From Escherichia coli (GTDB taxonomy: Bacteria; Pseudomonadota; Gammaproteobacteria; Enterobacterales; Enterobacteriaceae): 64,000 bases of DNA. The stretch is taken from the NCBI RefSeq assembly GCF_003334305.1, contig NZ_QOWS01000007.1. One strand, 5' to 3'. The first letter of the stretch is position 1. Every line of letters begins with the position of its first letter. Shown piece after piece: positions 1,075 to 24,194 of the stretch. Under the pieces are notes generated by a model. The model was given only the letters and a program-made list of their open reading frames with translations. It searched no databases and was not told where the DNA came from. Both the position numbers and the translations under genes were made by a program.

Positions 1075-2109
1075 TTACTTGCTAAACGCAGCCTGGAAGA
1101 CAGCTACCAGCGCGTCGTTCTGACTCTGAGTCAGAGTATGACCTTTCGGATCGATGAACTGTAGGCTGCTGCGGTTATCTAAATCGCCAACCTGCAGTTT
1201 ATAGTCACCGGATGCTAGGCCTGGATCGCTCGCGCCCAGTTCCTGCCAGTCGCTGTCAGACAGCGGCTTATAAGTTACGGCCATGTTGCCCTGCGAACGG
1301 GTGCTGTCGGTCACTTTCATGCCCACTTTTTCCAGCGCCGCTGGCAGACGTTGCCAAACCACATTGAACGGCCCGCGTACGACCAGCATTGGTAAACCGG
1401 TGTCATCAGCTGCACTTTGTACGTCCATAGTGGTGGAGGCACGATTTTGCGCAGCGTTCGCGGCGTCAGTGGCAGATTTATCCAGACCGGCGGAAATAAC
1501 GTTCATCATCTCCGTGCTGTAACGCTGCATGGAAGCCGCGTCTGCAACCGGTTTGCCCGCCTGTTCCAGGTTCAGCAGTTTAACCGTAACCGCCTGCTGA
1601 TAACCCTGCGGCTTAACAGAGATTTGATAACGACCACGATACTGCTCGTCTTCGTCCAGACGGTTCCATTGTACCCAATCGGTGGTCAGTGTCTGACCAG
1701 CATCATCACGTTGGGTGATGGTGTAGTTTTTCGCCTGCAGCACGCTAACCACCTGCGGCCACAGAGTATTGCCACGACCATTTTCCACCAGCAATGAAGC
1801 GGTATCGCCCGTGAACTGGGTACGCGCGCCAGAAACCAGTGCCAGCGGCTGGGCTGGTGGACGAATGTCCAGCGCCTTACCGACAGCACCACTACCGTTG
1901 GTCACCGGGATTGCATAATCACCGGAGGTCACCGGCAAAATCATTCCAGCCGGGGCATGAAGCTCCGCAAGCGGTGCCGCTTCCAGGTAGGCTTCATCAC
2001 CACTGACCTGACGCTTATAGCGTGAGTCAGAACTACAGGCAGCGAGTAATAAAACAAGCGAAACACCCGCAACCTTTGCCAGGCGCGACTTTTGAACAGA
2101 GTAAGCCAT
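1075..2109 (-). CDS. bamC: outer membrane protein assembly lipoprotein BamC (NlpB)
   Basis: ORF 1075..2112; signal peptide with lipobox LLLAAC|SSD; start set at second Met ([12 protein letters not shown]), 344 aa. Confidence 0.9.
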
Positions 2110-2125
2110 CAAATCTCCCTAAACT

Positions 2126-3004
2126 TTACAGCAAACCGGCATGCTTAAGCGCCGCTCTGACCGTCTCACGACCACTGTCGGTGATTGGTGTCATTGGCAG
2201 GCGCAGCGTATCGGTCGCCACAAGACCCAGTTCCTTACATGCCCATTTCACCGGGATTGGATTGGGTTCGACAAATAGTTTGTTGTGTAATGGCATCAGA
2301 CGCTGATTAATAACGCGTGCCTCGGCAAAATGCCCTTCTGCTGCCAGTTTGCACATCTGGGCCATATCACGCGCTGCGACGTTAGCCGTAACGGAAATAA
2401 CCCCATGACCGCCCAATTGCATGAAGTCCAGCGCGCTCGCATCATCGCCGCTCAGCAGAACAAAATCATCTGAAACCAGCTCTTTGATCTGGTTTACACG
2501 CGTTAAGTTCCCTGTTGCCTCTTTGATTCCGATAATATTTTTTACTTTCGCCAGACGGCCCACCGTTTCCGGGAGCAGATCGCAGCCAGTACGGGACGGC
2601 ACATTATACAGAATTTGCGGCAGGTCAGTATGCTCAGCGATGGCTTTGAAATGCTGATACAAACCTTCTTGCGACGGACGATTGTAGTAAGGGGTTACCG
2701 TCAGGCAGCCGACGATACCACTGTCATTGAAGCGCTGCGTCAGGCTAATGGCTTCCGCAGTAGCGTTAGCGCCGGTCCCGGCAATTACCGGAATGCGCCC
2801 ATCAGCCAGCTCCAGCGTCATCATCACCACATCAGCATGTTCGTCATGATTTAAGGTAGCGGACTCGCCAGTGGTGCCAACAGAAACGATCGCCGAAGTA
2901 CCGCTGGCGACATGATAATCAATCAGTTTTTTCAAGCTAGCCCGACAGACATTACCTTTTTCATCCATCGGAGTAACAATCGCGACAATACTTCCCGTGA
3001 ACAT
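2126..3004 (-). CDS. dapA: 4-hydroxy-tetrahydrodipicolinate synthase
   Basis: ORF 2126..3022 recognised as DapA; start trimmed to [17 protein letters not shown] (292 aa). Confidence 0.93.
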
Positions 3005-21014: not shown

Positions 21015-21043
21015 GATGTGCTCCATCGCTAGTTGAAGCACAT

Positions 21044-21138
21044 TGCCGGATGCGACGCTTGCCACGTCTTATCCGGCCTACGAATACTATGGATTAACTT
21101 CGCGTAGTTCGGATAAGGCGTTCGCGCCGCATCCGACA
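21044..21138. repeat. BIME: two inverted REP elements
   Basis: tgccggatgcgacgcttgccacgtcttatccggcctacg and its inverted partner cgcgtagttcggataaggcgttcgcgccgcatccgaca. Confidence 0.55.
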
Positions 21139-21151
21139 ATAAACACCTTAT

Positions 21152-21853
21152 CTACAACTTCAGAATTTCTTTCACAAACGGAATGGTCAGCTTACGTTGC
21201 GCGGTAATCGACGCACGATCCAACTGATCCAACGTCATAAATAGCGTGCGCATTTCTCTGTCGAGCCGCTTCAGCAAGAAACGCCCCACATCTTCCGGCA
21301 GTTCAAAACCACGCAAACGCGCGCGTAACTGTAGCGCCTGCAACTTATCTTCATCAGAAAGTGGCTGCAATTTGTAGATCTGCCCCCAGTCGAGTCGCGA
21401 CGCGAGATCCGGTAACCCCAGATTCAACTGCCGCGGTGGACGATCGCCGGTGATCAACAATCGTGTTTTGCCCGATTCCAGAATTCGATTGTAGAGATCG
21501 AAAATCGCCATCTCCCACAACTCATCGCCTGCAATACACTCAATGTTGTCGATACAGACCAGCGACAAATGCTCCATACCGTCGAGCACTTCCGGAACAA
21601 ACCAGGTGCGTTTATCCAGCGGGACATAGCCCACCGCATCGCCACGCTGCGACAATTCCGCGCAAGCCGCGTGCAGCAGATGGCTGCGCCCCGCGCCTTC
21701 GCGTGCCCAGAGATAGATGTAACCGCTATGTTCCTGACGCAGCACGTTTTGCAGCGCAGCCAGTAAAGAGGAGTTATCCCCCGGCCAGAAACTTGCAAAG
21801 GTTTCGTCGTCAGGAAGATAAAGTGGCAAAGAGAGCTGTGCCGGTGTGTTCAG
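21152..21853 (-). CDS. hda: DnaA-inactivating AAA+ protein Hda
   Basis: ORF 21152..21898; the recognised Hda N-terminus ([18 protein letters not shown]) begins at a CTG codon at 21853 (233 aa). Confidence 0.85.
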
Positions 21854-21947
21854 AGATACCTCAACCAGGATTTCACAAAATCGCGAGAAGTTTACCACAG
21901 AATCCCATGATGTTTGAACCGGGCAGCAACACTGCCCGGTCGGTACA

Positions 21948-23237
21948 TTATTTGTCTGTTATATCCGCGTCTTCTGCGTCCAGCACCACTTCTTCAGGGC
22001 GCAGCACACTAATCAGTTTGAAGATCAAACTTAAGCCGATACCGACGATGGTCGCCAGCGCCATACCTTTTAACTCCGCCGCGCCGATGTTTACCTTCGC
22101 GCCACTGACGCCGATGATCAAAATCACGGAAGTCAGGATCAGGTTCTGTGCTTTGTTGTAATCCACTTTCGATTCGATCAAAACACGAATACCGGAAGCA
22201 CCGATGACACCATAAAGCAGCAGCGAAACGCCGCCCATCACCGGCAATGGGATCATCTGGATAGCGGCAGCCAGTTTACCGACGCAGGAAAGCAGGATAG
22301 CGAAAATCGCCGCCCCGCCGATAACCCAGGTACTGTAAACACGGGTGATCGCCATCACGCCAATGTTTTCTCCGTAAGTGGTATTTGGCGTGGAGCCAAA
22401 GAAGCCGGAGATCACGGTCGACAGGCCGTTAGCAAACATCGAACGGTGCAGACCTGGATCGCGCAGCAGATCTTTTTTGACGATATTAGCCGTTACTACC
22501 AGGTGCCCTACGTGTTCGGCAATAACCACTAATGCCGCTGGCAGAATAGTCAGAATGGCAAACCACTCGAAGCGCGGCGTATAGAGGGTTGGCAGCGCAA
22601 ACCAGTGAGCATTAATAATCGGCGTGGTATCGACAATTCCCATTGCGAAAGAGAGCGCGTACCCCACCAGCACGCCAATTAAAATCGGGATAATTGCCAG
22701 GAAACCACGGAACAGCACGGAACCTAAAACCGTGACCGCCAGGGTGGTAATAGAGATGATGATGGTTTTGGAGTCTGGCGTTTGCCCTTCAGCCGGGAGT
22801 AAACCCGCCATACCGGCAGCTACGCCCGCCAGCTCCAGACCGATGACGGCAACGATTGCGCCCATTGCCGCAGGTGGAAACAGCACGTCCAGCCAGCCGG
22901 TCCCCGCTTTCTTCACGATAAAAGAAACCAGGCAGAACAGCACGCCGCACATAATAAAGCCGCCCAGCGCGACTTCATACCCCAACGGCAACAGTAACAA
23001 TACCGGTGAAATAAAGGCAAAGCTGGAACCAAGATAAGCCGGAATTTTCCCTTTACAGATGAAGAGATACAGCAGCGTTCCAATACCGTTAAATAACAGT
23101 ACAGTCGCCGGGTTAATATGAAATAAGACGGGCACCAGGACGGTTGCACCAAACATGGCGAACAAATGTTGCAAACTAAGCGGGATTGTCTGTAAAAGTG
23201 GCGGTCTTTCACTCACCCCGATAGCACGGCGCGTCAT
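21948..23237 (-). CDS. uraA: uracil:H+ symporter
   Basis: ORF 21948..23279; start trimmed to [16 protein letters not shown] (429 aa). Confidence 0.92.
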
Positions 23238-23279
23238 AGTATTATCCTCTGTATTATGTGTTATAGGCGCTTTACTCAA

Positions 23280-23949: not shown

Positions 23950-24194
23950 ACTCTTTCTCCTTTGAGGGGCAGCCACAAAAAAAATCGACGGATTATACCT
24001 CCTTTCTTCAAGGCGGCAATATTCTTTTCGTTGACTTTAGTCAAAATGATAACGGTTTGAGATAAAGTTATTTTATATTCAAATGGTTATGAAAGAAGAT
24101 TATTCCATCCGAAAACTAACCTTTGCCCTGGCACAAGTCTTCTTTCGCCGCGCGTCTGGGGAAAAGACGTGCAAAAAGGTTGTGTAAAGCAGTC

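Follow-up and report, generated by a model that had tools for sequence, protein, structure and literature searches.

In E. coli, infC, which encodes IF3, and pcnB carry AUU start codons, and these non-canonical starts hold expression low or responsive to the discrimination exerted by IF3, the autoregulatory loop of infC being experimentally established. The gene under study here, hda, shares with infC only the weak codon, and no IF3- or growth-dependent control of hda was found. Nearer in kind is yfjD, the second chromosomal gene of E. coli K-12 for which a CTG start was confirmed and where, as in hda, the CTG took the place of a canonical start in the annotation; according to EcoGene 3.0, this CTG was predicted from conservation and a ribosome-binding site and was confirmed by start-codon mutagenesis. 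The product of yfjD is unrelated to Hda, however, and its old start (TTG, codon 9) lies downstream of the CTG whereas that of hda lies upstream. The closest described system is hda of E. coli K-12 itself (b2496, NP_416991.2), whose CTG start is given as experimentally established in the part of EcoGene 3.0 that concerns it, with reference to Su'etsugu et al. 2008, J Biol Chem 283:36118. The CTG start of hda is, in other words, already known, having been published in 2008 and being present in RefSeq; what is added here is the order-wide invariance of this codon and of its Shine-Dalgarno sequence, together with a hint that the wider Hda family often uses weak starts. Since Hda sets the rate at which DnaA-ATP is inactivated after replication initiation, the way in which its level is fixed bears on replication control.

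The hda gene analysed here is another copy of this known locus and not a relative of it: start codon and 233-residue product are those of the K-12 gene, and no difference was found. It lies on the minus strand of the window, that is, the whole 64-kb stretch of E. coli DNA that was analysed, and is flanked by uraA and yfgD/arsC. A 901-nt stretch across the gene is present in 5426/5426 complete E. coli genomes, many of them 100% identical, where the annotation of the match reads hda, 'DnaA inactivator Hda', and uraA lies upstream. The window protein exceeds the cut-offs of both the equivalog model NCBIfam NF005982 (476.6 bits, cut-off 268) and TIGR03420 (281.4, cut-off 194.8), and has the DnaA-like AAA+ domain and the Hda lid domain, the precomputed Pfam assignments of its relatives being PF00308 and PF22688. 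It corresponds to residues 21-253 of PDB 5x06 chain E, with Met for the CTG-encoded Leu as the sole change. Because its sequence is identical to that of the characterised E. coli protein, RIDA activity (stimulation of DnaA-ATP hydrolysis with the DNA-loaded clamp) can be accepted as its predicted function. Read along the minus strand, the uraA stop codon is followed by a GC-rich hairpin and then by ctGTGgtaaacttctcgcgattttgtgaaatcctggtTGAGGTatctCTGaacacaccggcaCAGCTCTCTTTGCCACTT. The features of the locus are as follows.

21851..21853, minus strand: CTG (CUG) initiation codon of hda, read from the sequence, found in 81/81 aligned sequences and in three divergent ones, and reported in the literature.
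21152..21853, minus strand: hda coding sequence as actually translated, 233 codons and a TAG stop, encoding the DnaA inactivator Hda; the RefSeq CDSs of NZ_CP010178 and NC_000913.3 map here.
21821..21838, minus strand: beta-clamp-binding motif QLSLPL, codons 6-11, from the translation; Q6, L7, P10 and L11 show no variation among the aligned sequences.
21858..21863, minus strand: Shine-Dalgarno sequence TGAGGT, its GAGG core (21862..21859) 5 nt before the CTG; every column is at least 90% conserved.
21854..21898, minus strand: spurious 15-codon extension (GTG ... TCT), leader and probable promoter DNA and not part of Hda; stops, missing starts and indels in relatives.
21889..21897, minus strand: predicted extended -10-like box TGGTAAACT (TGnTAnACT), overlapping GTG 21898..21896; TG.TA.ACT at least 90% conserved.
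21913..21918, minus strand: predicted weak -35-like element TTCAAA, 18 nt upstream of TAAACT, matching TTGACA at 4/6 positions; TTC conserved.
21917..21941, minus strand: GC-rich hairpin just past the uraA stop codon, with an 11-bp stem and a 3-nt loop, terminator-like without a U-tract.
21948..23237, minus strand: uraA, uracil permease, the upstream same-strand neighbour, from RefSeq annotation mapped from the NZ_CP010178 locus.

An earlier note on this DNA had proposed that hda begins at a CTG and that the in-frame start upstream of it overextends the reading frame. The triplet at 21853..21851 on the minus strand is indeed CTG (plus-strand cag at 21851..21853), and the 248-aa translation of the longest ORF, 21898..21152 on the minus strand, does carry 15 residues before the Hda N-terminus. 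The note was mistaken on a single point, the identity of the upstream codon, which it gave as ATG: the sequence at 21898..21896 reads GTG and the ORF tool lists it as such, the tool printing M for any start codon by convention. A start at this GTG, giving 248 aa, was the pre-2008 annotation of hda. The sole ATG nearby, at 21908..21906 on the minus strand, is out of frame with hda; it opens an 11-codon ORF (21873..21908, minus strand; stop TGA at 21875..21873) that runs across the -10-like box, is not conserved among the aligned sequences and is probably located before the point at which transcription begins. The note's interpretation is otherwise supported by four lines of evidence independent of one another, namely annotation, literature, comparative sequence and the position of the clamp-binding motif, and we conclude that CUG 21853..21851 almost certainly starts the 233-residue Hda, the 45 nt up to GTG 21898 being 5' leader and probable promoter and not coding sequence. 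Two other readings are weighed against this one in what follows. In the first, the CUG yields the main 233-aa Hda from hda's own promoter while the GTG yields a minor 248-aa isoform on transcripts reading through from uraA. In the second, translation starts at GTG 21898 to give a 248-residue Hda in which the CTG is an ordinary internal Leu codon.

Reference annotation and published work place the start at the CTG. In the PGAP-annotated E. coli genome NZ_CP010178 (WP_001307333.1), the hda CDS occupies 1648..2349 of the extracted locus (L001), position 1648 of which is position 21853 of the window, where the sequence reads CTG; in K-12 MG1655 the CDS of NP_416991.2 covers 2618075..2618776, that is 702 nt, or 233 codons and a stop. 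From these two sets of coordinates it follows that RefSeq already begins hda at this CTG. In the paper reporting the crystal structure of the Hda-clamp complex (PMC5397184), full-length Hda is taken as 233 residues and 26.6 kDa, and the deposited 5x06 chain consists of a tag followed by M-NTPAQ.... Initiation profiling, which the earlier note had named as a check on its proposal, is approached by a tetracycline ribosome profiling (TetRP) study (PMC4909307), whose Supplementary Table S3 lists 2006 and 2014 annotations of hda that differ by 45 nt, the CTG being the 2014 site and lying that far within the 2006 reading frame. For hda, the automated TetRP call is 'no change' from the 2006 start, in line with initiation at the GTG. 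Manual inspection, by contrast, assigned hda to category '3. 2014', which according to the legend denotes signal at the 2014 initiation site, and not to 'multiple', which speaks against a second start as well; it is this manual call, the sole assignment of the hda signal to the CTG site, that points to the CTG. Besides EcoGene 3.0, no direct statement of a CUG or CTG start for Hda turned up in full-text searches, and hda is mentioned neither in the main text of the retapamulin Ribo-RET preprint nor in that of the TRAINSPOTTER N-terminomics paper.

The main evidence is comparative. E. coli genomes hardly vary over the 64-nt region (5395/5427 records at at least 99% identity), which is thus uninformative within the species as to whether the extension is coding. 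The comparison set consisted of hda and its flanks from 80 species-representative Enterobacterales genomes, to which the window was added to make 81 sequences spanning Escherichia, Salmonella, Citrobacter, Yersinia, Serratia, Erwinia, Pantoea, Photorhabdus, Xenorhabdus and Edwardsiella. At the position aligned to 21853..21851, all 81 carry CTG, as do three of three more divergent members, Proteus among them, which brings the total to 84/84. Among the 80 distinct 233-codon CDSs, 129 columns hold an invariant residue with degenerate codons, and codon 1 is the only one of these in which a single codon is used; the other 25 invariant Leu columns use three to six codons each, the commonest accounting for 38-88%. 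The invariance of codon 1 is more than chance, and its being the sole single-codon column indicates that it is constrained as a nucleotide triplet, unlike an internal Leu. Were the CTG internal to a 248-residue protein, it would be expected to vary synonymously as those 25 columns do, and it never does. Protein similarity across the family moreover sets in at the CTG, which is also where PDB 5x06 and RefSeq begin, the NCBIfam NF005982 profile beginning two residues before it. Downstream, the first canonical in-frame start falls at codon 7 or later in every species of the Enterobacterales set, so that a protein begun there would lack part or all of the clamp-binding motif (residues 6-11).

The upstream 15 codons behave otherwise. 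The earlier note had suggested that their conservation be compared across Enterobacteriaceae; run across the Enterobacterales, this comparison found that the CTG and the GAGG are conserved and that the stretch between the two candidate starts is not. An in-frame stop falls within the 15 codons upstream of the CTG in 48/81 sequences, no in-frame ATG, GTG or TTG occurs between the last stop and the CTG in 30/81, and the alignment contains indels of 1-3 nt between the -10-like box and the Shine-Dalgarno sequence. Even in an E. coli-labelled representative (L003), a 1-nt insertion shifts the upstream GTG out of frame. The 15-codon stretch is non-coding. E. coli, E. albertii and a small number of other members of the set of 81 have this upstream frame open. 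Two in-frame near-cognate codons within the stretch, CTG 21868..21866 and ATC 21871..21869, were also considered as starts and were rejected, as they have no Shine-Dalgarno sequence and their position in the frame is not conserved.

The GAGG core is separated from the CTG by 5 nt in 76/81 sequences; four Serratia have a 7-nt spacer and one sequence has a 6-nt spacer. What looks like a conserved 'EV' in overextended proteins (...EVxLNTPAQ) is this Shine-Dalgarno sequence read as codons, and its conservation is at the nucleotide level. The base after GAGGT varies freely (A, G, C or T); it is a G in 24/81 Enterobacterales sequences, making GAGGTG (cases within L045-L082 and L092-L094, about 9 nt upstream of the start of the hda match; proteins P0006-P0098), and in Serratia the 2-nt insertion between the Shine-Dalgarno sequence and the CTG puts GAGGTG out of frame. 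In GAGGTG species, databases annotate a 235-aa Hda ('MLLNTPAQ...') from this GTG; for Hafnia paralvei and Izhakiella australiensis, sister entries carry the 233-aa form. Because the base varies freely and the GTG overlaps the Shine-Dalgarno sequence, the 235-aa 'MLLNTPAQ' entries probably carry two codons too many. NCBIfam NF005982, which has 235 positions and whose profile begins where the 235-aa form does, appears to have been built on that form. A further set of Hda predictions (P0064, P0105, P0108, P0116 and P0125) starts from an internal TTG at codon 9 to give 225 aa, without most of the clamp-binding motif; this form is a gene-caller artefact of genomes that have no canonical upstream start. 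Wrong forms of Hda, whether 248 aa, 235 aa or truncated to 225 aa, are still common in sequence databases, and in the case of the 248-aa form the longest-ORF rule gives a wrong N-terminus from which the clamp-binding motif is 15 residues further removed.

The position of that motif bears on the choice of start in the wider Hda family as well. Counted from the CTG, a motif of the form QL[SP]LPL is found near the N-terminus, at residues 6-11; the GTG start would put it at residue 21. When 1.84 billion representatives were searched without a profile, 150 diverse relatives were obtained, and in 129 of the 150 the motif could be located. Residue 4 is its commonest first residue; in 104 of these 129 it begins among the first 11 residues, and an offset of 20 residues is seen in E. 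coli-derived sequences only. The CTG start brings E. coli Hda in line with the rest of its family. Outside the Enterobacterales, Hda/HdaA proteins of 45-64% identity have the domain architecture of E. coli Hda, with the motif, in those where it could be located, usually in the first 11 residues. The starts predicted for nine sampled relatives of this kind (L083-L091), which are gene-caller predictions and not experimentally mapped, are GTG in three, TTG in two and ATG in four and, unlike that of E. coli hda, never CTG; in four of the five with a non-ATG start, the upstream frame is closed within seven codons, with no alternative start. Weak starts may characterise hda in general, outside the Enterobacterales as well, as far as a small sample of nine predicted starts can indicate. 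The neighbourhood differs among these loci: the gene upstream of hda is a DUF2066 gene (PF09839) in L084, L085, L090 and L091, and an AI-2E-family transporter gene (PF01594) in L086, L087 and L089, the end of the neighbour overlapping or abutting the hda start in several of them. The uraA-hda arrangement is not universal.

GTG 21898 is probably promoter DNA, as predicted from the motif that it overlaps. The TGnTAnACT box is found in 77/81 sequences, ending 34-39 nt before the CTG, and its distance from the CTG changes by numbers of nucleotides not divisible by three. It can be read as an extended -10 element: a TG, one base, then TAAACT. If the box is a promoter, transcription would start near 21882, corresponding to about 2618805 in MG1655, and GTG 21898 (MG1655 2618821) would lie outside the hda-specific mRNA. 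The candidate -35 element TTCAAA directly follows the hairpin, and its conservation may belong to the tail of the latter. A scan of 21750..22100 for sigma-70 and terminator consensus sequences returned no calls; the promoter scanner demands 9/12 matches over the -35 and -10 hexamers and the region of the -10-like box has 8/12. No published transcription start of hda was found in the literature search. The box, TGTGGTAAA / TGTGGTAAACT (21889..21897, minus strand), is also similar to a DnaA box in reverse complement, which would read TGTGNATAA on this strand, a likeness that is intriguing for a gene regulating DnaA. It has two mismatches in the eight specified positions, the same mismatches being shared by its relatives, and the conserved box fits an extended -10 element better than a DnaA box.

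The hairpin at 21917..21941 is stable (-22.3 kcal/mol, z = -3.59; 0/200 shuffles fold as well). It was not called by the terminator scan because it has no T run, and the lack of a U-tract makes some read-through from uraA possible. Such read-through, which is plausible, is what a minor 248-aa isoform would require; the open frame of E. coli, E. albertii and a small number of others also allows such an isoform, and GUG is intrinsically a start about 10 times stronger than CUG in reporters (bioRxiv 10.1101/063800). Against this, the GTG has no Shine-Dalgarno sequence, the extension is unconserved outside Escherichia and would displace the clamp-binding motif by 15 residues from the N-terminus, unlike in the rest of the family, and the manual TetRP category is that of a single site. 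We regard a second, GTG-initiated isoform as very improbable. As to the GTG being the only start, a reading that has in its favour an open frame from 21898 with a canonical start codon, the occurrence of the 248-aa form in many database entries (P0002, with 3510 member sequences) and the unmoved automated TetRP call, it is contradicted by the missing Shine-Dalgarno sequence upstream of the GTG, by the location of the GTG inside the conserved TGnTAnACT box, by the stops, absent starts and frame-breaking indels of the extension, by the synonymous invariance of the CTG, and by RefSeq, EcoGene, the manual TetRP call and the crystal construct, all of which use the CTG, and is extremely unlikely to be correct.

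Initiation at the CUG is best explained as follows. The strong, near-consensus UGAGGU, its GAGG at the optimal spacing of 5 nt upstream, sets the 30S subunit on the CUG, which the initiator tRNA reads as fMet with a first-position mismatch; the GTG at 21898, overlapping the TG of the extended -10-like box, probably lies upstream of the hda transcription start. In reporters, CUG supports 1-2% of the expression obtained with AUG, GUG and UUG supporting 10-100% (bioRxiv 10.1101/063800), and structures of CUG initiation complexes show a weak first-position pair, the initiator tRNA in those structures being a variant (PMC11497404). It is therefore plausible, judging from codon and Shine-Dalgarno sequence, that the combination of a weak CUG with a strong Shine-Dalgarno sequence keeps Hda output low, and purifying selection would then hold the arrangement in place; the connection that the earlier note drew with low, tightly controlled Hda expression is reasonable in this light. 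Although UUG, GUG and AUG are each one mutation away, they occur in 0/84 sequences, which suggests selection for this weak codon itself and so for low Hda output. It is conceivable, though on balance we doubt it, that the CUG and its GAGGU form a selected regulatory device by which Hda synthesis is kept low and dependent on start-codon proofreading, for instance on the level of IF3. If so, the capacity of the cell to inactivate DnaA would be coupled to its translational state. A contribution of RNA structure in the leader, masking or exposing the CUG, was considered and rejected, the 66-nt leader and start region folding no better than shuffled sequences (z = +0.76).

We note that the mechanical ORF list overextends other genes of the window. 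It starts uraA at a TTG at 23279, as against a RefSeq CDS start at 23237 (extension 23238..23279, minus strand), and gives upp 217 aa from a GTG where the RefSeq CDS measures 627 nt (extension 23950..23976, minus strand). The longest-ORF problem is thus general in this window and not special to hda. On the other side of hda, the convergent intergenic region between its stop codon and yfgD/arsC (21040..21150) contains REP-like palindromic units (gccggatgcg...cgcatccggc), as is usual in such intergenic regions of E. coli.
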